A stretch of DNA of 63,984 bases, filler included, from Catajapyx aquilonaris (lineage: Eukaryota), in NCBI GenBank assembly GCA_000934665.2. It is 3 parts of 3 records of this genome, joined end to end, with 100 filler letters (N's around TTAATTAATTAA, not from the genome) between each part and the next. Parts side by side here need not be neighbours in the genome. Positions count along the whole stretch, not along the records: positions 1 to 21,371 come from JYFJ02006066.1; 2 more parts are not named here. One strand, 5' to 3'. The notes below the pieces were generated by a model, which did no database searches, had not been told where the DNA came from, and saw nothing but the letters and a program-made list of their open reading frames with translations. Numbering within the stretch: position 1 is the first letter of the stretch; each line of letters starts with the position of its first letter. The translations under genes and the position numbers were made by a program. This document shows, one piece after another, positions 4,414 to 52,900 of this stretch.

Positions 4414-4959
4414 CAGGGTGTTTCAGAGTCACAGGTCAAGCGGGCACGAGGGGGTGGGGAATAATCGTAGGTGACGACAACCCCCAGTCGGTTTTATAAA
4501 ACAATTAGAAATACGGCAGTAATCAATTTATTTATTACGGCCGTACGGCGTGACGTCATATCCTCTCTGTTCGAATTGACTGGCGCGGACTGGCTAATGC
4601 AGCATGGGTTGAACGGCTTTTTAGCCTTGCGGGTTGCACTGAAAAAGGCGCTCTCATGCTATACCAGTAGGGTACTGTACACTGTACCCTGCCGGTATAG
4701 CAGGAGAGCGCCTTTTTCAGTGCAACCCGCAAGGCTAAAAAGCCGTTCAACCAGGTTCAACCCATGCTGCACTAGCCAGTCCGCGCCAGTCAATTCGAAC
4801 AGAGAGGATATGACGTCACGCCGTACGGCCGTAATAAATAAATTGATCAACTTACTACCGTATTTCTAATTGTTTTATAAAACCGACCGGGGTTGTCGCC
4901 ACCTACGATTTTTTCCCACCCCTTTGCGCGTGCTTGACCTGTGACTCTGAAACACCCTG
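4414..4959. mobile_element. Tc1/mariner-type foldback MITE, family M1 copy 1 (almost fully palindromic)
   Basis: TA-CAGGGTGTTTCAGAGTCAC...GTGACTCTGAAACACCCTG-TA. The arms pair along almost the whole 546 bp, which explains the mirror-image ORFs in the track. Confidence 0.9.
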
Positions 4960-9115: not shown

Positions 9116-12100
9116 GAGATCAAAAATATGCAGCTGGAAGAGGCTCTCAATGAACGAGCTGATGAAGAGATGGAAGTCTCAGACTCTGAAGAAGAAGGAT
9201 TGTGCATCTCAAAGAAACGATCTAAAGCTGAAGAGGAGGAGGAGCATGAAAGAAATGTTGCAAATCTAAAGGTACAGAACAAGCAATTTTGTGTAACAGC
9301 TTTGAATATCGAGTGTGGTCAATGACATCTGCATAAGGTGGTCATGGAGAGCAATTCCTTAATGGCTTAACCCATCTCAGGACTGAAATAAAGGCAGTCA
9401 CTCCCAATGATCATTGGCTTGAATGCTTGGGCTGGAGGGAATAAGTAAGCAATATCATGCTGCCTTAATGGGAGATATTTTCCAGTATAAGATGTATAAT
9501 GTTTTTGTTGTGTAAATGTTTTGTTATGTAAAATTATGTGGTGCAAATATCATGGTCAGAAAATGTTTAGTTTGATAAATGGCATGGTGTAGAAAAAATG
9601 TACGATCTGGGAAAAGGAAGAATATCATGCTATAAATAAGAGAAACTGGAATGACTAAAACTGATCAAATTGGAACTGAACCAGAAACAGAGGGTAGATG
9701 GGAAGAAGGCCACCCAGTTGCATGCCACTGACAGCGAGTGCAGGACAGAGTTATGACAACCACCACACAGTGGTGCAGATTCCAAAAAAGCCTGGACAAA
9801 ATAAAATTTTCACACTTTGGAATGTAATTTTTCAAGTTGATCCAATATGTTGTTAGATAAGAGAATCAAGATGTTCTGTACTTGTGTTGGGGTAATCCTA
9901 AAGCCCAGTACAGTTAATCAAAATCTGATATAATTGACTTGGCATGGGCAGTTTTTGTCATAAAATCCTATATTTTGTTGTTGAAGAACACTTCCCTGGA
10001 AACTAAATAGCTGATTCTTCCACGGGACTGTTGCAGAATATACTGAGTTGCAATAGTGCTGTCAAAAGAGTGCTAAGACAATCAGATACAGCTTATATCA
10101 CCAAAATGTCAATCCAGCTTGGATTGCATGAAAATTGCACCAAAAGAACTCTGCTAGACCGTGAGAGGTCTTTTGTGTGATGAGGAGAAGCACAACATAA
10201 GTTGGCTTCCGGGCAGATTGGAGGAGATCTGGCACCCATGTTTGAACTGGCAGTTGTTGGTAGTACCATCTGGCCACCAGTGGCATGTAACTTGGAGAGT
10301 CCACCTCCGCCCTGCTTGTCCTCTCTGTCTGGCTCAGCTCCAGCCTGACTGGTTTTGGTAGTTCTGGTTTCTCCTAAATATGCCATAAAATTTTTGATTT
10401 TCCTAGACATTTTATTTTTCTACACTACAATATTTCTCTGGCCAATAATTTTCAGAACGTGCTCTTTTTGTAACGCAATATTTTAAATATTTATACAGTA
10501 GACTCCGAATATAACAGACTAGAATGGACCTGGAAATCAGTCTGCTATAACCAAGGTCTGTTATAGCCAAATGCACAGGCCTTTTATGGAAGTATGGTGG
10601 GACCAGCCTTTCGAGTCTGCTATAACTGAGAGTCTGTTATAGCCGAGGCTGTTATATCGGGAGTAAATTGTACTATGAAAACTTTCATCCCATAAAAAAT
10701 GCTATGGCTTGAAACGTTTCATTTTCATATCAATTTTTTCACTCCACTTTTGAGGTCCATCTATTCTGTACTCTATACATATACAGGGTGTATCAGAGTC
10801 ACGGGTCAAGCGAGCACGAGGGGGTGGGGAAAAATCGTAGGTGGCGATAACCCCGGTCGGTTTTATAAAACAATTAGAAATATGGCAGTAATCAATTGAT
10901 TTATTACGGCCGTAAGCTCTCCTGCTACACCGGCAGGGTACTGAACACACTACAAGTAGTGTGTTCAGTACCCTGCCGGTGTAGCCTTTTTCAGTGCAAC
11001 CCACAAGGCTAAAAACCCGTGCAACCAGGTTCACCCCACTGCACTCTTGCCTTAACTCTTGCCAGCCCGCCTGACTCGATTCAAACAGAAAGGATCTGAC
11101 GTCTCGCCGTACGGCCGTAATAAATAAATTGATTACTGCCGTATTTCTAATTGTTTTAAAAACCGACCGGGGTTATCGCCACCTACGATTTTTCCCCACC
11201 CCCTCGCGCTCGCTTGACCCGTGACTCTGATACACCCTGTAGAGTATTTTGGTATTGAAATTGGTTGAAAATTGCCTTCCCTGCCCATTATTCAGGTGAT
11301 ATTATTTTAGCATCTCATATGTGGTGGAAGAGCTAACAGATGATCACTATATTTTGTAGGAGGAGAATGACAGCTTGCGCTGTCAGTTGGAGGCGTATAA
11401 AAATGAAGTAGATTTGGTCCGTCATGATCTGAGAACAGAACTGGATCAAAGAGAGAAGCAAATAAAATTGCTTCAGCAAACTCTACAAGGATTGCAACAG
11501 GTAAATTATGATGGAATTATTTTGGAGTACTAACTTCTTAGAGTTCTTTGCGACCAATATTTTATCCACACCCAAAATGATGGAGGCAGTATGCATTGCA
11601 AGGCTCCAGTGAGTTCAATGGAGAGACAATCATTTCTCTGTTCCCATGTGAATATTCACCCACTCAGCAACAACTTAGACTCTTAGAGCAATGCTGCTGT
11701 CCCAAGGAAAAATGACATTGTGACAGAATAATGGCCTTGTCGTGGGATTAATATGATAATGTTACATTGGATATTGTTGTATTTGTGGCATGACAACCTC
11801 CAGCTTTGCATGGACCTTTATATCATCCTAAGTTAACATATTTAACTCAGATATGCCAAGTGTCCCCTATAGGGGACACCTGCACAGTTGTTACATTTTT
11901 ATTTTTTTGCGCAGGTTCTTCTGCTGCTAAAGAACTGGCAGTAGTCACAGGGGCTTCAATAGAGTCCCAGCTAATGATACAAGTTCAAACCTGCTCAATA
12001 TTGCTTTCGATTTTTAAGATACAGGTGTTTGAATTTTAACGCAGGAAATAATGGTGCACCTCCACATTCCGAAGACGATTAGTAATTAATTCTCGAATGT

Positions 12101-17625: not shown

Positions 17626-18277
17626 AGTTATAAGGCTGGCATCGTTCTCACACATGTACTCTTTATGTCATCCTGGACCTGGTTAGCCAATCCAACTGAA
17701 CACTTCTTCTCATGACTCCAGCCTCTCAGCGAAATGGGACACCATTCTCTGACAAAATGTGACACCATGGCAGTGATCACTATTTTGGTGTATGGTCACC
17801 TAAGGAGATCCAGGCTCAATCTGTTTGTACTTGTTGAGTATGAGTGCTGAGGCCTGTTCCATTAGTGCAGGCCGGCCTGGGAAGTTGTGCCTGATGGGTC
17901 GGCCTCCTTGCTAATCCCAACAATAGTTTCATTTTTGTTAGTATTATTTAGAAGTCACCATGTCATCCTCTAGGTTTGACTGACCTTCAAACAAGAACGT
18001 ACCATGGGCAGCCCTGATTATATAATTATTATTGATGGTTGAAGCATAAAACACATCTAGTTGTTAGCGGTTGGGTCTTCGACATTTCTCACTCCTATAG
18101 ACCTGCAAAATTTTAGACTTATTTTGGGCCAACGAGGATATACTCTGACAGGATATTAATGTAGATTTCTGACTCACTCTGCAATAAGAAGGCAAAAAAA
18201 AAGGTATGGAGATGGGAGAGTGTGAGTCGCCTAATTCCTCAATAACTACATTATCTCCCAAAAGAGAGCCAACAACA

Positions 18278-18278
<1 letters not shown>

Positions 18279-18342
<64 letters not shown>
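18279..18342. repeat. (TAA)n microsatellite
   Basis: About 21 perfect TAA units. Confidence 0.95.
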
Positions 18343-18671
18343 GTCTTAATGAAAATGCAATGAATGTGGTGTTTGAGAGCCCGACATGGAGTTTAAAAAA
18401 AATTAGGTTCAGACATGGATCCGTGGACTTTTATACATTATTGTCCTTTTTTGTTGTTGTTTTCGAGGTCTACAAGCAATGGATCATTTATCTGCAATGC
18501 AATAATATCAAAGGAGAAAGAGTTGCTCCACGGCCGAATGGGATATCACATCGCCCAATTTTATTTCTCATCAGCCATTTTCCGGTCGGTCGTCATCATT
18601 AATATTTAAGCAAGAGTAAAACCCACAAAGATCATGAGCAGTAGCTGGCTTCTGCTGCACAGGAAGCTACC

Positions 18672-20276
18672 TTAGCGGTCATCCCTGACGCCCATCGTCC
18701 AGCCCATATCCGGATGTTGGCGGCAATACCCGTAGAGCTCGGAGATGTAGCAGGGCTTGACGCAACATTCCTGATGCGGACCTGTAGAAGCGTAGGATGT
18801 GGTCAGGAAGCTACGGGCTCTCTCCTGACGGAGAAAGGGGAAGGTAGAGGAGTCTCTCTGAGCCTTCATTGTCCTGGAGGAGCCCTTGCTGCCTGCCACA
18901 TGTTGTCCATCCCTCTTTTCCCAGGAGTTGTATTCACCTCCGCATATGTAATTGAGGATCAGCGGAATGTCCTGGCCACATGCGTATCCGGGTCCACGCT
19001 TCATCCTGTACAATAAGTAGGCCTTTAATGCTGCTTGACAGTTCTGGATAAAAACAATAATAGCTACATTTTTTCCAGCCCTACACTGTAGTGTTCATGT
19101 GGCATTCTAATACACTGTACTCCCGATTATCCGGGCTAATGACTGCACGGTGTTTCCGGATATTCGGACACGGATAATCGGGAAATAGTTCTAGACATCG
19201 TAAAAAAAGAGCTATTCACAGGTTTTTAATATACTACTCTATAGACTAATAGAGAGTATGCTGTTTGGTTGAATCAAAATAATATAACTTACCATACAAT
19301 TTTTACTTTGTCTGCTGGAAAAAGTCTGTTCTATGTATGTCTTCGTTGGGGAGACATAGCGGGTAGTTACTTCTAACTTGGCAGTCCCAGTGATAGCAGT
19401 GCGTGGTACTGCTAAATTAGCAGTGGGACGAAAATTCGACGCATTTTTTCGGACCGCTTTTATTTATGTAATTTTTTGGCGATGCACTGATATTTCGCAA
19501 CACGGATAATCGGGAGTGCAGTGTATATCTACAGTGTGTTTCTAATGAGTAATCATCTTTACTTGCCGTGAGGGTCGGTTTTAGTTGTCGCTAATATCGC
19601 CCGCATACTTAGAACGCCCTGTATACAGGACAACCCGATGTTGAGATAGAAATTTTTCTTTTGAATTTTTAAATCACCCGGCACCCAAGCCCGGCACCAT
19701 CTACATTACAATGCTACAGTATATAACGACGAGATGCTTTGGCGACAGAGTACTCTTATTGATTAAATTGTGGGCCTAACAAGTAATTTCGACTGACATA
19801 TCATATACTCCAGAATGGTGACGAAATAAACATTAGTGAATAATCGGCCAAATCGCCTAAATCAACTAGAGCAATTTCGCCTTAGGAATTGCAAACAATC
19901 CTGATTTCGGGTATTAAAGACCAATTTTTTCTATCATACTGCATGATTATGCCAGCGACAATATTGTCTGGCATGGATCATTTTTAATTTCAGTAAAACA
20001 TTACGTTTATAATATGCAACATAATGATTCAAATGGTGCCAAATGAGTGTACTGCATTTTTTAAATGGAACTAAGGCATTCAGATAAAGCGTCGGGTGTG
20101 GCTTGGCGCGGCTGAGCAATCTCTCAAATATACAATTCAATATACTGTAGCTTAATCACGGCCTTCCTGACTTACCGGGACAATGCCTCAGTCGAGGCTT
20201 GCTGGGACAACCCTTCCAGATGTGGACATGATGCGAAGAGAAATACAAACACACACAAGAAAACCAGGATCGCCAT
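18672..20276 (-). CDS. Insulin-like peptide preprohormone, 144 aa, two coding exons
   Basis: Exon 1 (20276-20176) encodes MAILVFLCVFVFLFASCPHLEGLSQQASTEALS(R), a hydrophobic signal peptide, with donor CG/gtaagt. Exon 2 (19005-18672) has acceptor tacag/G and the phase 2 junction matches. Product layout: RMKR furin site, B chain GPGYACGQDIPLILNYICGGEYNSWE (C-X11-C), KR, C-peptide, A chain TGPHQECCVKPCYISELYGYC (CC-X3-C-X8-C), 16-aa tail. AATAAA on the minus strand at 18565-18560. Confidence 0.92.
19113..19523. mobile_element. pogo/Tigger-like MITE in the ILP intron
   Basis: TA-CACTGTACTCCCGATTATCCG...CGGATAATCGGGAGTGCAGTG-TA. Confidence 0.75.
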
Positions 20277-20314
20277 GACGATTAGACAAGTAGAAGTGTT
20301 GTAGTGCGACATGT

Positions 20315-20404
20315 ACTGGTTGGTTTCAAGTATATATTAGGAAGATTGCAAGAGGCTAAAAATTTCGAGTCCCGTTGCCATGGATGTGTGGACGTCAGCG
20401 TCAT
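20315..20404 (-). promoter_or_regulatory. Putative ILP core promoter (TATA-like box plus tandem CRE-like sites)
   Basis: Minus-strand AATATATA at 20338-20331, about 55 nt upstream of the ATG. TGACGC-TGACGTCC (two TGACG half-sites) at about 20403-20390. Confidence 0.3.
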
Positions 20405-21371: not shown

Positions 21372-21470
21372 NNNNNNNNNNNNNNNNNNNNNNNNNNNNN
21401 NNNNNNNNNNNNNNNTTAATTAATTAANNNNNNNNNNNNNNNNNNNNNNNNNNNNNNNNNNNNNNNNNNN
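21372..21470. other. Assembly gap with an artificial TTAATTAATTAA spacer
   Basis: N-run, TTAATTAATTAA, N-run. The same construct is at 42880-42978. Confidence 0.9.
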
Positions 21471-21471
21471 N

Positions 21472-27800: not shown

Positions 27801-30800
27801 ATATCGCTTACGGTAGAGTTCTGATACACCCTGTATACAGCTGTTGATAACTTACAAATACTTGGTGAGTGCTGCCACCATGGCCAAAGGCCACGTCATA
27901 TGCTAATATTTGCCAACTATAATTATAAGCTTATTGCGTTTGTTAAAAAACAATACCGGAATGCTCACATTGTGTTTGATGGCTATGGCAGTGGCCTTTC
28001 TACCAAAGATGAGACTCATCAAAGGAGAGGTGGTAGTGAGGTGGGAGTGAATGTGGATTTCACTCCAGATATGTTGCTCAAAATGAAGAAGCCATTTCTG
28101 GCAAACACAAGCAACAAGCAGAAATTCCTTCATTTCCTGGGATCCAAAATCATGAAGCATGAAGGCATGCAAGTCACTCACTCATCTGGTGATGCTGATT
28201 ATGATATTGCAATGACTGCTTACACAACAGCTCTGACACAGCCTGTAGTAGTTGTAGCAGGGGATGACACGGACCTCCTCATTCTGCTACAACACCACTT
28301 ATCGGTCAGCAACCATGAGACCATCATCTACGTATCTCCAAACTAGCACAAAACTTATAGATAAATCCATCCTGAAAAGGGAACTTGATCCTGACCTCAG
28401 TCACTTCCTACTCTTTATACATGCTCTGTCCGGATGTGATACAACATCGAGACCCTATGGCATAGGAAAACTTTCAACTCTGAATAAATACCATGTTCTC
28501 AAGGAATTCGCTGAATTGTTCATGATGGCGGATGTTAAGCTAGAGGAAATTGAGATATCCGGTAATAAGGCCATTGCAACCATATACGGTTGCAAGGATG
28601 GTTCAGATTTGAATAGTGAACGTGATTCTAAGTTCACCGAAACTTAGGTTGCTTCGAGTTCCAGCTACGTGCCCCCTAACGCCTACCACCAACATCAGAT
28701 GCTGCCAGATTCCATAGCCAGCGGGTCTACCTCCAAGTGCAGGCCTGGCTAGGCAACAAGATGGAGGCGACACAGTGGGGCTGGGTGCTGTGCAACACAG
28801 GGAACGAGTCCATCTTGAAGCCGCACAGAATGGATCAACCTGCAGTACCAGGAGCTCTACTGAAGATCGTGAAATGCAACTGTAATTGAATGTGTGCCAA
28901 AAATACATGTTCCTGCAGGAAAAATGGACTTCAATGTCACTTGGTGTGCGGTCAGCGGAAAGGGATAACATGCACAAATGGGCAAATTCATGATTCCAGT
29001 GACACCACTAGTATGATGAATTTGTGCAAATGTGATGATGCACAGATACGTGGGAGTATCGTTCAATACATTGCATTTTAAACTGTATCAAAACAATTAT
29101 ACCGTATATTAGCAGCATGATTATGTTTTTCATTTAAATATTAAAATGCTCGTTCATTGAAATAGATTTCTAACTACTTTATACTACCATTATTTTATTT
29201 GATGTGAAAATAATCCATATCTGGTCCATTCTTCGTTTCTGATATCGTTCTTCCACAGATCAGTCACCGACCATACTCTGTCATTAAGTGCCAACAGGCA
29301 TACATCGGCTGGTGTACTGTCCAAGTTTCCAGGTCAAGAGGAGCTTAGGTGAAGCACATGAGGTCAAATAACCTTTTAAGTTGCATATTCCATAAAATAA
29401 CCAATATAACATTAATAAGTGTTTTCTCCATGGAGCGTTTTTTTGGCGGCCATTTTGTGACGTCAGATGAGGTCAAATCACATTTTAAGTTGCATATTTG
29501 GTTTCCTCTCCCTCGTAAACATACAAATCGATATACTACACCCTATATTCAGCAGTAGGGGAGAGGGCTGTACCATGGAACACTTTTTCAACATTTATTT
29601 TTATTTAGTAAAGTTGTTCATGTTTTCAACATGTGAAACTGTCCATGTATAAAGCATATTGTTGCCCACACAATGGAACTTACTCATTTTGTATGTCACT
29701 AATAACTTCACTAAAAATAATTAATATGTGATAGTGTTGCAAATGTTCCATGGTACAACCTGCTGATGTACCTTGGAACAATCGGATGTATCCTTGGAAC
29801 CATTTATTTTCCAGCATGATATTAGGCTCAACAATGCAAATATTTTATTTCATGTTGTAGTTTTCATTCTTTTCAAAGCCAATTTTGAACACTATTCTTG
29901 ATGACAGCCTGACACAACACACTAACTGATGTGTTCCAAGGTACATGCAGGGCTACTTTTAGAAATGAACTTGCCTCTCTTTCGTGCATTACATGATTGG
30001 TAGGTAATAATGATTCAGCACTGTAGACTATTGGTGTACACTTCAGAGCAGAACTTCATCTACTACAAATATGTTATATGACAGGAGCAATAATCGACAA
30101 AAGGCCTCCCAAAAAACTTACTTTTGAGTATGAAAAATCACTTCCGCCACTCACTACCTCCTAAATGGCTACCTGCTAGGGTCTGCTTCCAACTAGGGGG
30201 CATATGCATCCTTTGATTCAGAAAGTGGCCGGTACATGTCAACACAAGCTGTGGTACATTGAGTGTTCCTAGGTACATTGTACTCAAGGTACAGCCCTCT
30301 CCCCTACGGTTTGTAACTATTTTTTTTACTAAGGGCGTTCTTGGCAGTCATTACTTGGATTTGACATATTCCATTTTCAGGTACTTCCACAAGTCAGATT
30401 TCGGTAGACTTTTTATTTTGTTTAGTGGAAGTATTCTAGTGGTGAAATCCGTCGAGAAACCTTTTGAAAGAATTTTGTTGAACCTGCATAGGATATTTCT
30501 GTTTAATGACCATAATGTTTAATACCATAGCACCATAGACTTTATTTCTTCAACAGTGAACTTGATTGACCAGTGCCTTGACTTTTCGGTCCACTTATCA
30601 GTTACCTCAGATCACCTTCCAGTATGTGCTTCCTTTCCCGTCCCTGGTCTGGCGCCGCCTTCCCCAATCATACCAAGACTAAGGATGGTAATTCCAGAAC
30701 CCGGGTTTCAATTCTTAGCTCCAGATTTAGAACAACTATTTCTCCTCCTGGATGATATAGAAACAATGGCTTTAACATTCAGAACTTTGATCAATCAACT

Positions 30801-33800
30801 GTTCCAAAACTCAGGAATGCTATACAAACCATCCAGACCTAACCCCAGACCTAACCCATGTTAGGAAGCATGTAGCCCCCTGGTACGATGGGACCTTGCG
30901 GGATCAAAAATCATGGTTAGACAACTCTTAAAAACCTGGCGTGAATCCCAAGACTCGGACTCCCCCCAAGGTTACCTTGCAGTGCGTAGGGCCTATTGGA
31001 ATCAATGTGATGCTAAGAAGAAAGTCTACTTCAGCCTCACTTTACCCAACCTATTGCTCACACAGAACTCTTCGGTTTTTTGGAAGACAAGCCGGAGGTT
31101 CAGATCTGGCAAGTCTAAGCAATACTTGGACCCTGAGGTTTGGTGGAACCACCTTGCTCGAACCTTATCCCCGGAAGTGGATGAGCATTCCCAGACCAAT
31201 ACTCTGGCAGTACTGATGCCCTCCCCCCTTTACCTGTTCATACAATGGATGCAGCTTTGACCAGGGATGAGCTCACAGTAGCACTCGCAAAATTAAAAGC
31301 TAAATCGGCACCAGGTCCTGACCTTGTTCCAAATGCTTTCCTAAAAGTTGACTACCCTTGCCTCCATTCAATATTACATACTCTTATTAACGAGTGTATA
31401 ATCACGAGTAGCGTTCCCTCAATTTGGACCCAAATAAGGGTGGTGCCTATACACAAATCAGGTCCACTGGAAGACCCCGCTAACTACTGTCCAATTTCAT
31501 TGGTAAATAATATCGCCAAACTTTTGACCTCTATTCTCACAACGCAGCTGACCAATTGGGCTGAAGAACATGGGATTTTTTTCCGAAACCCAGGCTGCTT
31601 TCAGACCGGGCAGGGGATGCCTTGACCATCTCTTTGTTTTCAACTCTATAATACAAAGGTTCACGGTAAAACCCAAGGGCAAACTCTTTGCCACTTTTGT
31701 GGACTTATCACGAGCATTTGATTCCGTCCCCCACACACTATTGTTTACGAAACTCTTAGAGCTTGGGGTTAGCCAACGCTTTGTGTGCCTATTAAATGAC
31801 CTTTATTCTAAATTCACTTTAATAGCTGAGAATGACCCAATACTGAGAATAGTCCCTGGCATCGGCCTTCCACAAGGAGAGCCCCTAAGTCCTGTCCTAT
31901 TCAACTTGTATTTATCAGATCTCGAAAGTTATTTGTGTCAACATGGTGCCCCGGGAGCAAACTTTCGTCCGAATTCCTCTGATATAAATACTCTCTCTTA
32001 CGCCGATAACATTATTTTAATTTCAGATAACCCACTCCATTTGCAAAAGAATCTGAATGCCCTACGCGCATACTTTGATAAGAACTGTTTGAAAATTAAC
32101 TTGAAAAAAACGAATGTCGTATGCTTCAAGCATGCTGGAAAACGCCCGAAAACAACGTTCTACTGGGACGAGGTACCGATACCATGGGTCCAATCTTACA
32201 TTTACCTTGGTGTTCCCATTTTTTTTACGTCCGGAAAATTTGCTGTAGCATCATCGTTATTTAAACAGAAAGCTATTGCAACAATTAATGGATTATGGCC
32301 CACCTTAATCAAAATAAAACTGCGGAACATAAATGTAGCACTGAAACTTTTCCACACGCAGATTGCTCCAATCATTTTGTATGGGGCTCAGGTATGGGGT
32401 CCCTCACAAGTTCAAACAATAAATCAGGTACAAAGTTTTTTTTAATCAAAAAGTTCCTGCAGATACCCCGTAACAAGGCGAATAATTTCATCCATTTGGA
32501 GACCGGCATTCCCCCTTTATCACTGCGCTTTTCCCAGCTCCAAGTGAAGTTCCTTTTGAAAATGCGTAAACTTTCTGAGAACAGGCTAATAAAAATTGCG
32601 TATAGGCCGGCTCTTCAATTAGCGCAAAAGAATCCTTCTAACCAAACCTCGGTGTCCGAGACGAATGGTTTCCTATCAAGAGCGAACACTGAGCTGAAAA
32701 TATTTGACTTATCAGATCTTGAGCTTCTTGCCCTCCACCAGAAACACGCGGACTATCTTCTTGAGCAGAGCAATTTGGCTCTGGCCCAATCTTCTCATTA
32801 CGCATACTACCGTGACATGCAAGGCCCTGCCCCAGCCTACTACTTATCGTACTCAATTCCAATTAAGATAATAAGGATGATGGCAAATTTACGTACTTCA
32901 TCGTCCAAGCTCATAATAGAAGGAATAAAATTGCAGTTCACACCTGAGAAATGTTGCACGTGGTGCAATGTTGCGGATTCATTCACCATTCATCATCTCT
33001 TATACTTGTCCTTTCTTTGTTACCCCCCGGAAAATGTTTCTTTACAATCTTCAGTCATTTCCCCCGGACCGGCAACATTGGCTTTTACTTGATGTAACGA
33101 AAGAGACAACTTACAATCTGTACAACTTTTTCACCAATGTTCTCAAAAGAATCGATGTGTGTTCGGCCTAATACCCCCCCCCGAGCTTTTCTGATATACC
33201 CATTTTTTGACCTTATCTAAGCATACGCTTGTTATTTAATTCCTACCCCCCGTCCAATAAAATTGTGTATTTTTATTTTCCTTTCTATTCCCTGTTATCA
33301 GGACAAATACTGGTAAAATGTATAAAATGCAATCGCAGTCAGAGCTGTCCCCCTAAAGGGGCTCTGCCCCAACAATGGGGTTACTTAAATAAAAAAATAA
33401 ACTGTCATATTATATGTAAGATGTGATCGTTGTACGGACATGATTGGAACACATTGTTACAAACTGTTGTAGGTGGGTGATTCTCCAAAAACTTACCAAT
33501 ACCATGTCCCGGAATAATAACTCAAAAATGGCTTGACTTTTTAAACATTTGTAGAAGCAGTTGACACCTAGCCATCCCCATGAAAACAAAGAAAAATATT
33601 AAATTAAGTTTTACTGCAAAAAATGTCTAAGGGCCTAAAATCACTATTCTTGGCATGTCCCGATCTCATTTTAAAGCATGCTATATTTTCTTACAATTTA
33701 ATCATTAACATTAGACAAGTTTCAATACTATAATTAAATTGTACATAGTTGACGGTATAAAACAACATTTTAAAAACGATTTATTCATTTGACATGACCT

Positions 33801-36800: not shown

Positions 36801-39800
36801 TCTTTAAGTGCCTGTACCTATACACCCATAAGGAAGTGCGCTTTTCACTATGCAGTTCAGTTTTAAAATCTAGAATACCAGGGTACCACTCTAGCGGGTA
36901 AGAAGGGAAGGAGCAAGCCCCATGCCTGGAGTGGTGGCGTTCAAAAATAATTTTATTTATCTTTAATTGTCTTCTGAGAGGAATTGCTACCACTAATTCC
37001 ATACATGAATTTTAAAAACATTATTTTGAGGATAGAGCACTATGTTAGTGATCCATTAAGTGATATTTAAATTTTCAGCTTTCATCCGTTCTGCTTTTGT
37101 AGCACCAATTGGGTCCTAATGTTCTCATTGGTTGTTTGTCGCAATTTTTGTCGATATTTTAAAACTAAAATTTTTTTCTCGTTTCTTATTGGGAAAATGT
37201 TCAGAAAATGCAATAGGAACTGACACTGCGTTAAAAAATTCTTCTCAGGTCTCAGGAGGATATGTTGAAAAGCCACAACTCTATGGGACTTCAAAGTCCA
37301 ACTGTCACATTTCTGAAGTTTTTTGACCAATTTATTATTTCTTGACAAAATTGAGTATCAGTGTTTCTCAAAATTCAGTCCATTGCCCATGGGTGAGCCG
37401 TCAGGAGTCTCCCAAGCCAAGGGGCAGGTAACTAATAGAAATCTATAGCTCTTGTTTGGTGTAATATCAGATAATGGCATTTTAAGTATATGAACAAGAA
37501 GCCTCTTGCCTTCCACAGCAGTTTGTAAAAGTCTGAGAAACATCGCAGTTCACTATGGGACTGATTTCAAATTGCTAACTCTCCCCAGGTCTACGTCTAT
37601 TTCTTAGTTACCATCAAAAAGGAACACCTTCATTGTGACACTGACCTTGATCTTCACCTGTCCAGCTTCCTCAAGTTCCCTGATCTTGCAGCCACCTCTG
37701 CCAATAAGTTTGCCAACATCCTTTGTAGCAATAGGAAAATTGAGGCTGTTCGTGGATGATGATGAGAATCCACAGGATCCATCCTGTGCTCTACCTGGGA
37801 AGCCCTGATCCTGGGAGGAGCCATTGCTGCCATCCCGCCAGCCACCTCCTCCCCCACGACCATACTGTTGGCTGTACAGCAAGTCTTCAATCAGTTGCTT
37901 GGACAAGGTACAAGCTTCTTTTGTGCCAAACATCTCGATGACATTGTCGCCCTTATTGATCTGAAAAGTAGCAACGGCAGAATTTTAATGGCGAAGGCAG
38001 AAGCACCCCTTTCAAAAGCAAAGTGTCACAAATGCATATCTGTTGAAAAACAAAATTCTTTCATCAGGCAGTCCATAATTGAGTCAATGCAGCCAAAAAT
38101 AAAGTAAATATATGCTAATGCCTCTCGTCATAACTAATAATATTTACATCATTTGCTTTGAAAATCATTGATACTCCCATGTTGGGGACTTCACATCCTT
38201 AAAACTATTACAAGCCAAGTTAAGATGCACCAACCTTAATCCTGGCTCCACTGTTATCCTGAAGCTCCCGGATCTTGGTACCCCCTTTCCCGATGATCTT
38301 GCTGACATCTCTCTCTGCTACTTCCATGGTCAAATGGCTGCTACCTTCCTCCCTTCCCAACCCACCCCCTCCTCTAAATCCACCTCCCTCTTCACCCCAG
38401 CCACCCCCCTCTTGTGATTCTGGAGCACAGTCTCCTCCAAAGTGGATGCCTCCCCTCAGGAAGCTATTCATAAGGCGCTCGGCCTCATGCCGGCACCAAC
38501 GGGAACCGCAAATCTCACCAGTTCCATCATCTTTAACCTTTTTCGAAAGAACTTGTATTAGCCTTGGTCACACTGGGGAAAATGTTCCCCCACTGGCATA
38601 TTCCCCCTTCTACATCCACAACTTCCAGTGCAGTTGACAGCAAAACATCATAGTAGTTTTACCTGCATTGCCATCATGTACAGTAATTCACTTGCTTGTC
38701 ATCACTGTTGCCAAATGCCTAATTTTTTGTGTCAACTGTGTTTTGGTTATAACAACCACACAGAACTTTCAAAAGGGACATTTTCAGGTCTAGCTAAAGA
38801 GATGGCTGTGATAAATGTCCCACATTGTAAAAGTGAACCTTTTTCAGGCAGCACTCATGTGACTCAATATTTGGTCTTGAAAACAAGTAATTCACAGCAA
38901 AATCTCAAAAGTTTTGAAAGATACTACACGCAATAATGATCCAGCAGCTTACCTAGTCTGACAGAAAGTGGATCCACTTTCAATTGACACTGACAAGGGA
39001 AGGCTGTGAAGTTAGCACTAACGGATTTGGACAAAAATCGATCAGTGGGCAAGTCACATGCGTAGAATAGAATTCACTGGTGAACTTAAAAACATTCACT
39101 GTGCAACCATTTTCGAGATATGAGTGATGTCAGATCAGGCACACTCAATAGTGGATCCGCTAGCTCCCTTTTGAGATTTATTATCATCATCAAAAAAAGT
39201 CTTATAGAACGGCTGTCTGCCCGTCTGGCGAACGGTTTTCGGATTCTGATTAAACGTGACCTATATAAGTGTCATGGCCAACTTCCAATGACCTGCCACT
39301 TCCGCTTTTCTGGGTTCACTCTATCCCCGCAAGTCTACTTCAGAGTTTGAGACCAATGCCCCAGTCCCGTGACGGATAATAGGGGTTCTACTGTAATCTT
39401 TTGTTACAACAATTTGTAAACTTGAATGAGACTACTTCATCGTCAATGTTACTTTCTTTGGGGGGAAATTACCCATAAAGGGCAAGAACTCTGCATTCAG
39501 GGCATGGAGAGCGTCTGGGGAATAAGCCACTGAAGCATTTCAAGCTATCGGGACTACTGACAAACTGTCTGCAAATACCCTTCATGCACTAGAACATTTT
39601 ACTGTGATTATGTACGGTGGAAAGTGCAAGCACACAAGCGTGGACATGCTCAAGAGGGATATGTTCGTCGGGGAGAACAAACCCCTCTACCTGATGCCGC
39701 CAACTTCAGATGCACTCCATCAGCATTTGCTACGAGCAGCATACCAGGCTGGTCAGGTGTGGGGCAGGTCTCTTCATCTTTCATGGAGATCCTCCTCTGG

Positions 39801-42539: not shown

Positions 42540-43469
42540 NNNNNNNNNNNNNNNNNNNNNNNNNNNNNNNNNNNTTAAGGTGGAAATGAAGCTAGAGTCA
42601 CTCAATGAGAATTTTATGAAAAAAACATATGTTACGCAGTTTTGTGTCCTCTTATCAATGGCGCAAAGAAAAATACACGTCACCGTGCAAATTAGCGAAC
42701 TAGAGGGCTCAGAAGTTCGCGATTTAACATGGGCCCTTATGGCAGAATTTTCAATAGTCCCCAAAAAAATGATAAGCAAATTAGAATTTTAAAATTTAAT
42801 GTGGAATATGTCGGGAATTATATACTGATCGTAACCGCAAAAAGAAAAACCTACCTCACCGTGCTCTTTCAATTTGTATNNNNNNNNNNNNNNNNNNNNN
42901 NNNNNNNNNNNNNNNNNNNNNNNTTAATTAATTAANNNNNNNNNNNNNNNNNNNNNNNNNNNNNNNNNNNNNNNNNNNNGTATGAATTATTATTATTATA
43001 TTATTATTATTAGAATAGGGGGCCAATGTCCCAAAGTCCTTTCCGCCTCCTGCGGCCAAGGATGACCTCGGAGGTCAAGTCCAATGTGCTAAAAACCTTC
43101 CCAGTAAAATACTACCCTTAATGATACCCCTGGGGCATATGTCGGGGCCTCCGTATGGATTTTCGTAGCTGATCCCAGGAAAGACAGACAGAAAGACAGA
43201 GACATACGTCGAGAAATATGTATTAGATTCGCAAATTCACAACATAATTTTAAACATGGCAAAACTGACAGCCACACACTTATTATTTGTCATACACAAT
43301 ATTATTTTGTCCATAGAGGTGCCCCCAGAAATATCGCTTGGATCTTCATCGGCCATCTTTAACAGCTGGTATGGGACTTACACCAGGATTAGATATACCC
43401 GGTGCTAGAGCCATAGGCTCTCTTAGGGAAGTGGATTACCACTATCGTGCAGGGACAGGGTAGGGATAG

Positions 43470-46935: not shown

Positions 46936-49900
46936 CTGAGTGTTAATGATGGAAAAATATTTTAGAAGTGATTCTACTCTTTGCAAGTTTCACCAATTCT
47001 GCTTACTCATAAGCAGTTGAGAGTTTTTATAGTCAATATCAAATTAATCTACTCTGAACACATTTGCATGGCCTGACCAGTCACCAGAAAATTCCATAAT
47101 ATTGGTCAAGCGAGATGGCTTGGTGTACTGTGTACGCTAGTCATCGCTGGCTACCCCACGCTGAGATTAATGCCGTGAGGAAATGAATGAATGAACACAG
47201 AAATGCCAATAAATGATACTGCATGTTTTCTGTTTCAAGACAAATCCTACCTACCACTGTTATCAGAATGCCACCTGCACCAGACAACCACTGTGACATC
47301 TGAGGGCAATAAGATGCCTGACAAGATGCAGAGTTGTCATGTGTCATGCGTTTCATACCAGATGCCTCTGTAATGACTATACACAGGGTAAGACAACTCT
47401 TTACCTTGGTGGACCTCTTATTGCCCAAAGGTATCAGTCGGTCGTCTGGAATGAGTAGGATTTAGATAAAGTCGTGGATGGGATCTTCCTTCCAACCAAA
47501 ACTGCACAACCTTTTTTCAATCATGAAAAAACCTAGGTCACCTCACCTCCGGCATGATGGCTGGGTGCAGTGGGAGGAGCTCCCATGGTCTGCCGAGCCA
47601 AATTCTGCGTCATGTCCTTCATTAGTTCTTCTTTCTCTGTCTTGCGGGCAAAACAGTAGTCTGATACCTTGTTTTGGAATGTAACCAGCAACTGCAAAGA
47701 GGATAAAATTCATCATTAACTTGAACTACTACGGGGAGGAACTTTCGTACCTGAGTCAAGTCATTGTAAAACTTGGTTCCTTCAGTTACATTGCTTTGCA
47801 GTTCCATAAAGGCATCGTGGGAAGCAGCCAGCTCCTTCAGGAATTCATCACGTTGAGAGGCAGCACCTAGTCCACTCTTCTCCTTGCAGAAATCATTATT
47901 CAAAGCCTGTCCAAGAAAATATAGTCTTGGGAAATTACTCGCTTTCAAAATAGAATGATACTAAGAACCTGTCAATCTTCTTTACCTTTTAGTCAATAGT
48001 GGCTCATCAGCTAGTTATTATAAAGTAAAGAACTATGACATTTTTGTAATAAAATAAAAATGGCCGTTATCTACCATTACACAAAGCCTTTTAAAAATAA
48101 TTCTGAGAGCACAGGTGCTATACAACGGGACAATTCAATGCAATATCTTGCATCTGTCCCTCCCACAAATAAAATCTTGCACCATACGCCTCGCAGCAAA
48201 ATGCAACAAGGCATATTAAGAAATATGGTGACTGGCTAATAAAGCTGAAGAGAAGTTACCTGAATTTGCCCAACGAGTCTCTCCTGCTTCTCCACACTTT
48301 CTTTCACCTGCCTCTGCAGGGGACCATAAACTTGGCCCAACTGCTCCACAGAGAGGGCTGGTTCATTAATGGCACCATCATGAGCCAAAGCACTAAGGAA
48401 AGCATTTTTCATATCGATACTGGCAGACTTCAGCTCACACTCTATGGAATCACGCTCAGCTTTTAGCCCTTCCACTTCGTCCATCAAGCTCTTAAGTTGC
48501 TGTACTGTTGGGCTACTCTGAATCACTGATGTTGGGTTTGATGATGGGATAGAAGAAATCAGTTCTTCCTCAAAACCACTCAATAATTCCATTCCTCTTC
48601 TGTGCTTGTCAAATTTCTCTTTCACAACCGCATCTGCCTGCACTGCATTGGTGATAATTTGTCTGGAAAAAACATAAAACTAGCATGAATGTGACGAGAC
48701 GTGTATTTATGCACTCAGAAATAACTTTCATTTGCAGAAGCAGTAATTCCTTGTCAGGACTTCTGAATCATGGTCATATAGTATATATCAGTGTAAGTTC
48801 ATATTATTGGAAAACTGAATATGTCCTTGCTGCAATTCCAGATCAAGACAGAAATGCAATTCTTTTTAAGGACTGAAAAATGGACACCCCATGCAAATTA
48901 CACACCCTTTGTGCCTACACCAGACCTCCAGGCAAAACCACAGGGCAAGGTGGGAAGTTGTTTGAAATGAATCAGTTTCTATTTGATCAGAAATGCTAAA
49001 AGTAGGACCGATACTTTGAGATACTTTAGCATAAATCAGAAATGTGTTATTGGACATCAGCAGAAAAGAAAAAAAAATTGGCGTCAATTTCAGTTGACGC
49101 CTTCTTTCTTTGCTGATGTCCAATATATTGGACATCAGGTCTCAGGAGGATACACGATTCTGGTCTATCCATAGTCTACTACAGGCAGATTCATTATACA
49201 AGAGCAGATCAATAAGTAACGCAATAAATTTAATTTAAGCAAAAGTTTAATAGATAGACAAAACTTAAGATATACATAGCGACCTTCCAATCCTTTGGCT
49301 ATTTTTCAACATATGAACTGTTTCTGTTGATGCATTTGTCCCACAACTGTGGTACATCGTTAAAGGTGCCATGTTTTTAGAGCTCTGTTTTTTGCAATAA
49401 GGCCTTTTTTACTGGGCGTCCGGGACAATGCTGATCGGTAATGTCTTCTTGATCCTCAGAAAACAGCTGACACCATCATGAAATGTTGCTATGGTCCAGG
49501 CATGTGTTCCCATGCACTTCTGTCATGTCCTTGTGAATTTGGGTGGGAGTTTTGCCTTGCATCCACAAAAAAGCACAGCAGCTTAATGCTCAATAAGGGT
49601 GGGCAATGCTAACACATTCGCCACCTTTGCTGGCTTGTTCTCTTTAGATGCACTTGGGGGCACCCTCATGCAGATGTGTACAGACCTGACCATGTACTGT
49701 AAACTGTACGACTTTCGTCTCTTTGCCCCCTTGAAAAAAAGGCCTTATGGGCTTATGGCAAAAAACAGAGCTCTAAAAAATGGCATCTTTAACTATGTAT
49801 CAACAGTGCAAAAAGAACTGTCCCAGTCATCCTGACGTGTGGGCTGGCCGCTCGACACACACCATGTAAGTTACATGGTGTGTGTCGAGCGGGCAGCACA

Positions 49901-52900
49901 CACATCAGGATGACTGGGACAACTCTTTTTGAACTGATGATACCCCAGTGGGACAAATGCATCAACAAAAACAGTTCATATGTTGAAAAATAGCCAAAGG
50001 ATTTGAAGGTCGCTACGTATATCTTTAAGTTTTGTCTATCTATTAAACTTTTGCCTAAATTAAATTTATTGCTTTACTTATTGATCTGCCCTCATATATT
50101 TAAATGATCATGATTGTGATATTTGTTAACCAGCTACACACTCCTTGTGGATGATGCCGGGTATGGGCCTTACAGGTGCACATCAATAGCAAGTATGTAG
50201 CTCATTAACACACCTGTATTTGCTGCCATTGGTAACAAAGGTTTCTGTCAATTTTTCCGATGGCGTTCTCTTCCATTGTTCCTTGAACTGTTCACGAAGT
50301 TGATCATCAGATGTTTTCTCCTCCTGAAGAAGCCTTAGAGCCTGGCAAGAAAAATTCACTTGTAAAGGGCAAAACAAACAGCAGCGAAAATTTTCATGTT
50401 AGGCCTGACGACAGGTCTCCAAGTCAAGTTCTTTCCACACCTGAGGTTGCAAGTTTGATGTCTTCCATTTTAAGAATGTCTTGAGTTTTGATTTCAACTA
50501 CACAACTGTTATCATATATGAATATACCTCATCAAGGATCTGCTTATTTCTCTCCAGGAGCTCGGGAAGTTCAGATATTTTCTTTTGCAACTCTGGAAGT
50601 CCTCCAGCTTGCCTCACAGCTCGTGCCTTCTCTAAGACAGATTGTGGAACTGTATCACCTCCCATGTCCTCCAAGGCAGCAGGCAGGTTCAGAGAAGCCA
50701 GGACACTACAGGTACACAGAAGAAATTTCACCAAATAAAATTACAACCTCATGTGGTCAATTTAAAAGTTACCACACAAAAGACATAGTACAATCCATAA
50801 TAACAACAACAATGCAACAACACAGTAGAAGTAGTAACATGAAGAACAACAACAGGTGCAGACAGGGTCAAACAATTGACTGACAAGTTTCATATATGTG
50901 GACTAGGTGGCAGTTTCTCTTTGCATTCAGGTGAGAAGCCCTCCTGACAATCATATTTTCTGGTGTTCATGGGTCAATACTTGGTAGATGCCTGAGGCAT
51001 ATATCTTGTAAAATTTAGGTCTTGATTCCATTGCTAAACAACCGGATGAATTAATCCTGATGAATCAAAGCCTTCTACCAACAAAAACACTATCCATAAC
51101 CTGCAGACACATGATTTTCACCTGTCAAAATAACTGTTTCCAATGCAGGTGTCAGGTGATATGCACTTTTATGCATAACAGTGAGTAGTATATTCTATTG
51201 TAGAGGATGTTTGTGAACTCCCCTGATAAACTTTCTGGGGTGGTAGGAAGATCCAAAAATAACATTAGGTTGTGTCGGGAACACAAGCCACAGCTTTTGA
51301 CGTGAATACGTCTTTAAAATCGGATCAGTCTTGGGGGGAGTGAATTGATTGCTTATTATCAGTATTGAAGTCTGGACACATGCATGGTGACCCTCCTAAG
51401 AATTTCCCTGCATGCCCCTGCCATGGGCCCCATGGCATGGCCCCCTGGCAGGGTCCTGACTCTAACACTGTACACTTAGGATATAGTAGACTCGGATATA
51501 GTAGACTGTAACGCTTTTCTGTAAACCCCCAGTTTGCCTCCATGCCCCCTATGTAGATCCGAATTTAGCCACTCCGGATATAGTAGACTCGGATATAATA
51601 GACTCGGATATAGTAGACTCGGCTATAATAGACTGTAACGCTTTTCTGTAACGCTCGAGTTTGCCTCCATGCCCCCACTCTATACGGACCCGATTTTAAA
51701 GACATATTCACGTCAAAAAGATAAACTCAGGAAGAGCGAGCATTTGGCTCAAAGTGCCCTAGTTTGGTGGCAAAGCCCATCAAGGGTTTACATGAAATTG
51801 CAAGCATTCCAGCAACTTTCACAATTCTTCCGTCTGAAGCACCTTCCCCTGGCTCCTCTCAGGCTGTACAGCTTTTGATAAGTATGGAAGGCATAAGTAA
51901 AAGTCACCTGTGTACAGGAACATAACTGGAACCTGGAACCAGTTTAGCACAAGTCGATTACAATTTTACTTATCCTAATTAAAAATATAATGTACCAGCA
52001 ATTGGTCATTAATAAGCTAAATACCTCAAGACCCCTATACAGCCAGTCTGACCTATGTAGCACCAACATATGTGGATTAGACCATGCGCAAAAAAATCTA
52101 AGGCACAAACTGTTAAAGTAAAAATCCGCCAAATTGTGAAAAGACACATTAAATTTCAGCCTATGGGAACTCAAACCTGCCTACCAATACTTATTCCCTC
52201 ACTCACAGTTGACATGTAACAGACATTGTGACCACTTCTGGGCTTTGTGGTAATCCTTTCCTGCCCGTGATGGCCTCAAATGGATAGGGCAGTGACTCCA
52301 GTATCAATATATGTATAAGGTACAGCACAGGATGCAGTATAATTTACAAACAAGTTCCATATACGTAAAATTCAACTTGTGTATAATGTTGTGAAACATT
52401 CCACTTATGTAAGTCAGGGACTTACTGTATTATGTTTATAAATGCTTTTCTCCCTCTCTGGCTCCCTACCTGACACTGCCAAAACTTATATTGACTGATA
52501 CAAGAATGATTTTTGCCATTAGAAATAAAAGCTCAGAAACTCCATTAACCGACAAAATTGCACTCTAAGACTGAAATGGAAAATTACTGCCATGTATGTG
52601 ACCTTAAATCCAAATTATCATGGCATCATATTTGAATGCCTCATTTTGGAGCTTCTTGGTAAAAACCTTTATCTCTCACATATTCCACAACCATCTTTCT
52701 TACAATGCCTATCTCTAATAAATGCACTCCAACATCTAATACTGAGAAAAAACTTTCAGAGTTTCTTACTGTAGATAAACTACTCAAATCAATTGAAGAC
52801 CTTGGGGGAAGAACGATCAAGCTCCACTTTTTGTCAAAAATGAGGTTCATAATATCTCAGAAGATGCTTTCACTAGTGTAGAATAAGATGGTTTGGTCAT

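Follow-up and report, generated by a model that had tools for sequence, protein, structure and literature searches.

A strongly diverged insulin-like peptide gene of the LIRP/sirp type, probably intact, in Catajapyx aquilonaris

We describe here a gene for an insulin-like peptide (ILP) on the minus strand of a 63,984-nucleotide stretch of DNA from Catajapyx aquilonaris (assembly GCA_000934665.2). This stretch, hereafter the window, consists of three joined parts separated by filler, and the gene lies in the first of them (positions 1 to 21,371, from JYFJ02006066.1). We consider, with a probability of about 70%, that this is an intact and probably functional gene for a secreted ILP of the insect LIRP or 'short IGF-related peptide' (sirp) type. 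Its sequence, its family membership and its nearest relatives are observed directly, and from the sequence we infer its splicing, expression, secretion, cleavage pattern and receptor. The peptide is a strongly diverged LIRP/sirp ILP and leaves the picture of the family unchanged.

Several tests place this peptide in the insulin superfamily. Exon 2 scored 24.6 bits against the Pfam Insulin profile PF00049 (E 5.3e-5, profile positions 3-81 of 81), for which the curated cut-off is 23 bits, and the six-cysteine insulin framework claimed in a preliminary description of this DNA therefore passed the check by hidden Markov model. A phmmer search of 1.84 billion representative proteins gave 20 matches at E<=1e-3, with the best at 1.7e-7 and none at E<=1e-10, and a word-index protein search with the ILP returned no candidate. 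The same family assignment was repeated by the ESM Atlas, in which the top clusters (0.92 and 0.90) were from Arthropoda and carried Insulin on 38% and 46% of their members. Furthermore, a profile made from 30 relatives, with the window's protein excluded, was searched on the 1,714 six-frame open reading frames (ORFs) of at least 25 residues, and it matched the ILP ORF alone (E 8.9e-27, 90.5 bits), the next best ORF being at E 0.81. A cysteine-motif scan found in the same ORF the window's only pair of C-x11-C and CC-x3-C-x8-C motifs. Both scans agree that there is no second ILP in the 64-kb window, as had been noticed before. The peptide retains each of the 6 invariant and each of the 6 nearly invariant columns of the 31-row alignment. 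Its motifs were absent from the main text of the literature searched, and the one motif matched in the supplement of PMC7357564 was LNYIC, which occurs there in two spider arthropod IGFs (aIGFs); therefore, as far as these searches reach, the peptide is not in print.

The named relatives are all insect ILPs or LIRP-like peptides, with identities of 27-40%, and the resemblance to locust LIRP-type insect ILPs that had been proposed is borne out by them. Among the 20 phmmer matches looked up, 13 carry an organism name and all 13 are insects, the other 7 having no organism attached. They comprise proteins named as ILPs (Plautia ILP1, Copidosoma 'probable insulin-like peptide 3', Pyrrhocoris ILP2/3 and Laodelphax ILP1), LIRP-like proteins (from Rhynchophorus, Anoplophora, Agrilus, Adelges, Bacillus and Cylas) and insect proteins of unnamed function (from Exocentrus, Ignelater and Zophobas). 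Of 11 proteins obtained by the profile search, 10 are named insect LIRP/ILP. The alignment has the LIRP layout, that is, a propeptide ending in K/R-R followed by CG...L...C.G.YN...K[KR], an acidic stretch, FPF..[KR]..A.S in the C region and G-x-x-x-ECC-x3-C...E...YC. Copidosoma floridanum ILP3, Plautia stali ILP1 and the LIRP-like peptides of Bacillus rossius, Cylas and Anoplophora have in common with the window's peptide the six-cysteine framework, the short propeptide ending in K/R-R and the motifs CG...C.G.YN...K[KR], FPF...A.S and G-x-x-x-ECC-x3-C...E...YC.

As nearest relatives, alignment layout and the FPF motif (common to two termite atirpins) agree, we have filed the peptide with the LIRP/sirp type. 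On its sequence it is a divergent member of this type rather than an aIGF or a relaxin, which were set apart by description and by-eye comparison. Two LIRP/sirp marks, the FPF...A.S C-peptide and the K[KR] after the B chain, are present. The basic convertase site directly before Gly A1 is absent; such a site is typical of the type and not strictly defining, since atirpin has no clear sites either according to the part of PMC10148640 available. The tail of 16 residues goes beyond the few residues after the sixth Cys given by Veenstra 2020 (PMC7357564, in the section available). Compared with its LIRP/sirp relatives, the window's peptide differs in lacking any basic residue over the 15 positions ahead of CC and in having Pro in place of V/I/L at A2, a 16-residue tail, a long end branch, and B, C and A in one exon.

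Phylogeny allowed us to claim divergence and not a subfamily. In a first tree of 29 rows, from which P0024 and P0063 were left out as near-duplicates, the peptide fell in a starred clade (97/90) with Copidosoma ILP3 and the proteins P0021, P0005 and P0013, and the program warned of long-branch joins. When the long-branch rows P0005, P0013 and P0017 were removed for a second tree, P0021 left the group and a weak pairing with Copidosoma ILP3 alone was obtained (66/93). Because the clade fell to this weak pairing and the window's branch was the longest, no subfamily in the tree is claimed.

The A chain was compared with those of 29 parsed relatives; P0005 was outside the pattern owing to an extra Cys and was read by eye (KR-GIVHECC). 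At A2 the window has Pro and the relatives have V/I/L in 27 of 29, Ala in one (P0021) and Pro in one, the LIRP-like protein of Rhynchophorus (...SRDNPESECC). Pro at A2 is thus, in the sequences compared, rare and with precedent. The His at A3 is shared with 7 of 29 (GVHDECC/GIHDECC). Of the Pro-His pair that had been called atypical, both residues are there, but only the Pro is unusual and the His is ordinary. The absence of a dibasic site before the A chain was also correctly noticed, and it is more extreme than in any of the 29 relatives: no basic residue stands directly before Gly A1 in the window (21/29 relatives have one), and the nearest basic residue is 15 residues from CC, compared with 5 residues in 21/29 relatives and 4-11 in the other 8. 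Apart from the window's peptide, a K/R pair within the 16 residues before CC is lacking in P0017 and P0019. Whether GPH and the missing site are simply normal among relatives has a divided answer, His at A3 being common and site loss precedented, while Pro at A2 is rare and the site loss extreme. Taken from the sequence comparison, then, the peptide is an extreme yet precedented case of loss of the C/A cleavage site. An N-extended A chain or a missing convertase site is not new either: both have already been described in the accessible parts of the reports on atirpin (PMC10148640), hymenopteran aIGF (PMC7357564) and DILP1/6/7 (PMC10560217).

A tail of 16 residues is found as well in P0013/P0024, whereas it has 10 residues in P0017 and at most 8 in the other 26 of 29 relatives, and 10 by eye in P0005. 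The tail had been described as IGF-like; it is long for the type, yet it comes without extension exons or the motif GTVxPx(F/Y), so it is not IGF-like in the arthropod sense. There is some likeness between ...PHPDDMFDW... in P0013/P0024 and ...QHPDMGW... in the window. As separate observations, the unnamed Logan proteins P0013/P0024 have eight Cys, with extra ones before the B chain and at A4, and an HPD..W tail like the window's. P0005, also an unnamed Logan protein, has eight Cys, one of them just before the B chain and with the fourth A-chain Cys directly doubled (KPCC), and its YCRQ tail is like the window's. These three proteins may perhaps represent an undescribed arthropod ILP type.

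Three published systems help to place these characters. [quoted passage not shown] The window's peptide has in common with it CC-x3-C, the FPF motif within a conserved C region and weak convertase sites. However, the two termite atirpins compared by eye (supplement of PMC10148640) keep a KK that follows the B chain and, immediately ahead of GVYDECC, RR-x-x-R, and they have V at A2 and a tail of 2-3 residues. By analogy, atirpin may be the closest published guide to the likely behaviour of the window's peptide. The LIRP-like protein of Rhynchophorus ferrugineus (P0017) is similar in its Pro at the A2 column, in lacking a dibasic pair over the 16 residues that precede CC and in its 10-residue tail, but its A1 is Asn and not Gly, and a single Arg lies 6 residues ahead of CC. 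This resemblance is probably convergent, because P0017 groups in the first tree with a weevil LIRP-like protein and not with the window's peptide. Finally, Drosophila DILP1 and DILP5-C4 (PDB 9ef1; PMC10560217, consulted in part) also have an A chain starting ahead of the canonical Gly, but their extensions are of 2-3 residues and made at real basic sites, and their A2 is Val.

An AlphaFold2 model, run with the 31-row alignment, predicted helices at residues 12-21 of the B chain, 60-69 in the C-region motif, and 76-82 (starting at Pro76) and 87-93 in the A domain, with a core pLDDT of 70-82 and a pTM of 0.43. When this model was searched with Foldseek against the PDB, 17 of the 18 listed rows were proinsulin, insulin, IGF-1/2 or single-chain insulins, and the TM to target was 0.44-0.75 for the top rows. 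The best PDB sequence match was the N-extended A chain of DILP1 (E 0.18).

The exon coordinates of the preliminary description (20276-20176 and 19005-18672), its splice phase, RMKR, KR, B chain, A chain and 16-residue tail all read in the sequence as claimed (Table 1). The C-peptide is also there, although the stretch quoted for it, FPFLRQERARSFL, is only the middle 13 of 43 residues and omits 23 before and 7 after. The six cysteines are spaced C-x11-C in the B chain and CC-x3-C-x8-C in the A domain, and the alignment columns C9, G10, L17 and C21 are nearly invariant in the B chain. A K/R-R pair lies shortly ahead of the B chain in 11 of the 19 relatives with a full N-terminus, counted by eye. 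Within the C region the basic sites are KAQR and RQERAR, and there is none in its final 10 residues (SFLTTSYAST).

Exon 1 encodes in full the 33-codon leader MAILVFLCVFVFLFASCPHLEGLSQQASTEALS, with a 13-residue hydrophobic core that is a candidate signal peptide, and its joining to exon 2 is predicted. As a general rule, Pro at the position after Cys disfavours signal cleavage right there, and cleavage of this leader directly after Cys17 is unlikely, with Pro18 following. Among 253 ATG...GT candidates of compatible phase within the 15 kb upstream, exon 1 is one of the 15 most hydrophobic, and within those 15 it is the nearest and the only one with a GTAAGT donor (CCG/GTAAGT at 20176, the slash marking the boundary), which is the consensus. 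The start codon is ambiguous because a second in-frame ATG is present at 20312, and the choice depends on the transcription start. GC content is 0.505 in exon 1, 0.562 in exon 2 (GC3, at third codon positions, 0.655) and 0.388 in the intron.

At the 3' end, the sole GT within the tail-coding part, GGC/GTCAGG, is a poor donor, and AAG/GTAGCT falls after the stop. According to the part of Veenstra 2020 available (PMC7357564), the first coding exon of aIGF genes holds the signal peptide, the B chain and a portion of C and the second the rest of C and the A chain, the extension is on extra exons, of which the last has GTVxPx(F/Y), and tails are missed when a donor is ignored. This last caveat seems inapplicable here, because there is a poor donor only, AATAAA is near and neither the GTVxPx(F/Y) motif nor an Arg-rich exon was found in any minus-strand frame over 18.6 kb downstream. 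Extra 3' exons of the aIGF type reached by a missed donor were thus rejected, as there is no usable donor before the stop and AATAAA follows ~107 nt after it.

Table 1. Features of the ILP gene, with positions counted along the window
Feature	Position	Strand	Remarks
TATA-like element TAATATATA	20331-20339	-	~55 nt upstream of ATG 20276; resembles the consensus, function putative
Alternative in-frame upstream ATG	20310-20312	-	Would lengthen the leader by 12 residues (MSHYNTSTCLIV)
Exon 1, coding part	20176-20276	-	ATG 20276; 33-residue hydrophobic leader MAILVFLCVFVFLFASC..., propeptide start and two bases of a split Arg codon
Predicted intron	19006-20175	-	GT...AG, 1,170 nt; splicing predicted from sequence
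Exon 2	18672-19005	-	334 nt; acceptor cttattgtacag/G; split codon Arg; uninterrupted translation, 110 aa
Propeptide end with RMKR site	18996-19005	-	R-x-K-R furin-type consensus right before B chain; cleavage predicted from motif
B chain GPGYACGQDIPLILNYICGGEYNSWE	18918-18995	-	Cys B7, Cys B19, Gly B8 and Leu B15 kept
KR dibasic site, B/C junction	18912-18917	-	Aligns with KK/KR of relatives
C region DGQHVAGSKGSSRTMKAQRDSSTFPFLRQERARSFLTTSYAST	18783-18911	-	43 residues (DGQH...SYAST); conserved FPF...R..A.S motif of LIRP/atirpin-type C-peptides
A domain GPHQECCVKPCYISELYGYC	18723-18782	-	CC-x3-C-x8-C; Gly A1, Glu A5, Glu A15 and Tyr A19 kept; Pro A2, His A3
C-terminal tail RQHPDMGWTMGVRDDR	18675-18722	-	16 residues
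Stop codon TAA	18672-18674	-	No usable donor ahead of stop
AATAAA polyadenylation signal	18560-18565	-	~107 nt past stop; use putative

Some other observations concern the gene and its surroundings. Inside exon 2, on the minus strand, there is a donor-like GAG/GTGAAT (18936-18941) at Gly23 and a strong acceptor-like site exactly at Gly75 (18780-18795; TTCTACAG/GT, also quoted as TCCTACGCTTCTACAG/GT), both in phase 1. Splicing of these sites would fuse the B-chain core straight to PHQECC, which is probably a coincidence, and a cryptic intron as the main form was rejected because the B-chain end and the whole C region would be lost. The intron carries an insert like a miniature inverted-repeat transposable element at 19110-19526, with 24-nt inverted repeats (19110-19133 and 19503-19526) that are 96% complementary and have 369 nt between them. 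There are N runs at 21372-21471 and 42540-42979, read as gaps in the assembly or masked sequence, and since the first of these lies upstream of exon 1, at a distance of ~1.1 kb, part of the promoter region cannot be read. Just downstream of the polyadenylation signal, an (AAT/ATT)n microsatellite at 18270-18370 reads as a poly-Ile ORF.

Several findings weigh against the assignment to an intact LIRP/sirp gene as we have presented it. No ortholog was found by phmmer among the 1.84 billion representatives, the best identity being 40% over most of the length. The end branch of the peptide measured 1.7 in the first tree (median 0.66) and 2.89, the longest of all, in the second (median 0.58). The mean pLDDT of the AlphaFold2 model is just 62.5, and Foldseek gave no match at E<=0.001 in the PDB. 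A single exon holds B, C and A, and the sole intron precedes the B chain, unlike the aIGF layout in the accessible text of Veenstra 2020 (PMC7357564). An ORF at 25538 is equally hydrophobic, with weaker donors, and is a possible alternative first exon. Lastly, the basic residues of the FPF motif are conserved in relatives with a proper pre-A1 site, so they need not be cleavage sites.

If the gene is a LIRP/sirp ILP as we propose, a course for its product may be suggested. The exon 1 leader would carry the precursor into the endoplasmic reticulum, where the three insulin disulfides would form, and the N-terminal propeptide would be cut off at RMKR. The furin-type consensus is R-x-K/R-R, with a preference of furin for Arg at P4; RMKR appears to fit it, and EKR would be a plain dibasic site for neuroendocrine convertases, without Arg at P4. 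In neuroendocrine cells, the B/C junction could thus be cleaved at KR. Because the canonical basic site before Gly A1 is missing, the A domain would stay N-terminally extended. Three forms of the product can be envisaged: a single chain, if furin alone acts; a B chain joined by disulfides to a C-A chain left uncut; or an A chain with an extension of ~10 residues after a monobasic cut at RQERAR/S. This last cut is the least certain because its basic residues also occur in relatives with a proper pre-A1 site. The product would most likely act on the insulin-receptor tyrosine kinase. In the part of Viola et al. 2023 available to us (PMC10560217), site-1 contacts with the Drosophila receptor include the DILP5 residues that correspond to Gly A1, Ile A2, Val A3 and Tyr A19, a 3-residue A-chain extension points away from it, and longer A-chain N-termini (DILP1, 6 and 7) should fit. 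Since receptor site 1 tolerates A-chain extension, an N-extended ligand of the insulin-receptor kinase is plausible. By analogy with DILP5 and insulin, in which A2 contacts the receptor, Pro at A2 probably changes receptor affinity and is the change most likely to do so.

Part of the evidence could also be told as decay. In a drifting or recently inactivated sirp paralogue, the lost site and Pro A2 would be early damage, and little or no active hormone would be made. This would agree with the long end branch in both trees, with the loss of a pre-A1 basic site kept by 21/29 relatives, with the replacement of an A2 residue that is V/I/L in 27/29, and with the duplication and strong variation of sirp genes in the part of PMC10148640 mentioned above. 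However, the frame is intact, none of the six Cys or of the 12 invariant or nearly invariant columns has been lost, the splice sites are consensus, a polyadenylation signal follows the stop, GC3 is 0.655 against a background of 0.39, the RMKR and KR sites are kept, and the 64-kb window holds no second ILP copy, so we regard decay as unlikely. Rather doubtful, too, is that the peptide belongs to a conserved, unnamed ILP subtype, marked by a B helix that begins with Ile-Pro, an A chain with KPC, an N-terminal extension of the A domain and an HPD..W tail resembling a D domain, which would circulate as a 'split-proinsulin' with biased or weak agonist, or antagonist, action. In such a subtype the tail may be common to P0013/P0024 and partly to P0005 and Copidosoma ILP3; the B chain would be disulfide-linked to the uncut C-A chain, and Pro A2 could make the product a biased or weak agonist or an antagonist.

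The C/A junction and the tail raise in turn the idea that this is the species' aIGF (dilp6-type), that is, a largely uncleaved growth factor that fat body or other tissues would secrete constitutively and in which the tail would be a short D/E-like domain. That RMKR and not EKR suits furin would favour this, and so would the CC-x3-C spacing, as in IGF and atirpin (PMC10148640, in the part available), a tail exceeding the 'few residues' typical of neuroendocrine ILPs, and a C/A junction without a convertase site, as in the aIGFs of Apis, Bombus and Camponotus (...GPGLAEECC / GPGLVEECC) in the supplement of PMC7357564. Hymenopteran aIGFs in that supplement indeed resemble the window's peptide in lacking a basic site before the A domain and in having residues after the last Cys, but they have a long multi-exon tail with GTVxPx(F/Y) and a short C domain. 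The absence of that motif or an Arg-rich exon from the 18.6 kb downstream, the lack of a good donor before the stop with AATAAA 107 nt past it, and an exon layout unlike the archetype all speak against an aIGF. Its C region of 43 residues with a LIRP-type FPF and a KR at the B/C junction does so as well, the C regions of Apis and Blattella aIGF being of ~15-25 residues by count of the sequences available, and none of the named matches is annotated as IGF; we therefore find this identity very unlikely. We consider highly improbable that the peptide is a ligand of a leucine-rich-repeat G protein-coupled receptor (gonadulin/dilp8-like or relaxin/dilp7-like) instead of the insulin receptor kinase. 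The atypical N-terminus of the A chain could reflect a different receptor, and an Aedes relaxin C-peptide also has a PFL...A.SFL-like motif. That same Aedes relaxin, the one sequence compared by eye, has CC-x4-C and lacks a Gly following the first Cys of its B chain, whereas the window's peptide has CC-x3-C and CG. Moreover, relaxins are the best conserved arthropod ILPs, with highly conserved A and B chains, according to the accessible text of PMC7357564, and no relaxin-named protein was among the matches. In the same text gonadulins have no fixed sequence signature, poor similarity to other ILPs, gonadal expression and LGR3 as receptor, and they are so variable that sequence alone hardly excludes one; they are also hard to recognise, while the window's peptide aligns along its whole length with LIRP-like peptides, and it is only because it is so readily recognised as LIRP-like that a gonadulin identity is unlikely.

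Beyond the ILP gene, the window contains on the minus strand exons of an ALIX/PDCD6IP gene at 47622-53998, with Pfam ALIX_LYPXL_bnd and BRO1, whose best matches are from Anabrus (Orthoptera, 62% identity), Periplaneta (61%), termites (56-59%) and Macrobrachium (59%), with 34 at E<=1e-10 among 439 candidates. These matches suggest a pancrustacean host, probably a hexapod, for which the collections searched hold no close sequenced relative. Between the ILP and ALIX positions, two ORFs with KH_1 domains and Gly/Arg-rich stretches (37604-38567, minus strand) probably belong to a gene for a KH-domain RNA-binding protein. Overlapping ORFs of a non-LTR retrotransposon (RVT_1, E 7e-27), with apparent frame shifts between them, occupy 30523-33092 on the plus strand. 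A near-identical stretch, ...FKTIRNTAVINLFITAVRRDV..., is found in opposite orientation in the ORFs at 4471-4869 (plus strand) and 10702-11172 (minus strand); it is dispersed-repeat-like and has no Pfam match.

ILP repertoires beyond the well-studied insect orders are poorly known, and annotation often misses short ILP genes. Weak or absent convertase sites are already known from atirpin (PMC10148640) and hymenopteran aIGF (PMC7357564), both seen in part, and we do not describe a new kind of hormone. Judging from the sequence, this is a LIRP-type gene with an A domain that would not be releasable at the usual place, and with Pro at the A2 contact residue. If the gene is drifting, it would illustrate the fast turnover of sirp genes. 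If it is functional, it would offer a natural experiment on the extent to which an insect insulin needs canonical processing and the Gly-Ile/Val-Val receptor epitope, and on the diversification of ILPs alongside duplicated receptors.

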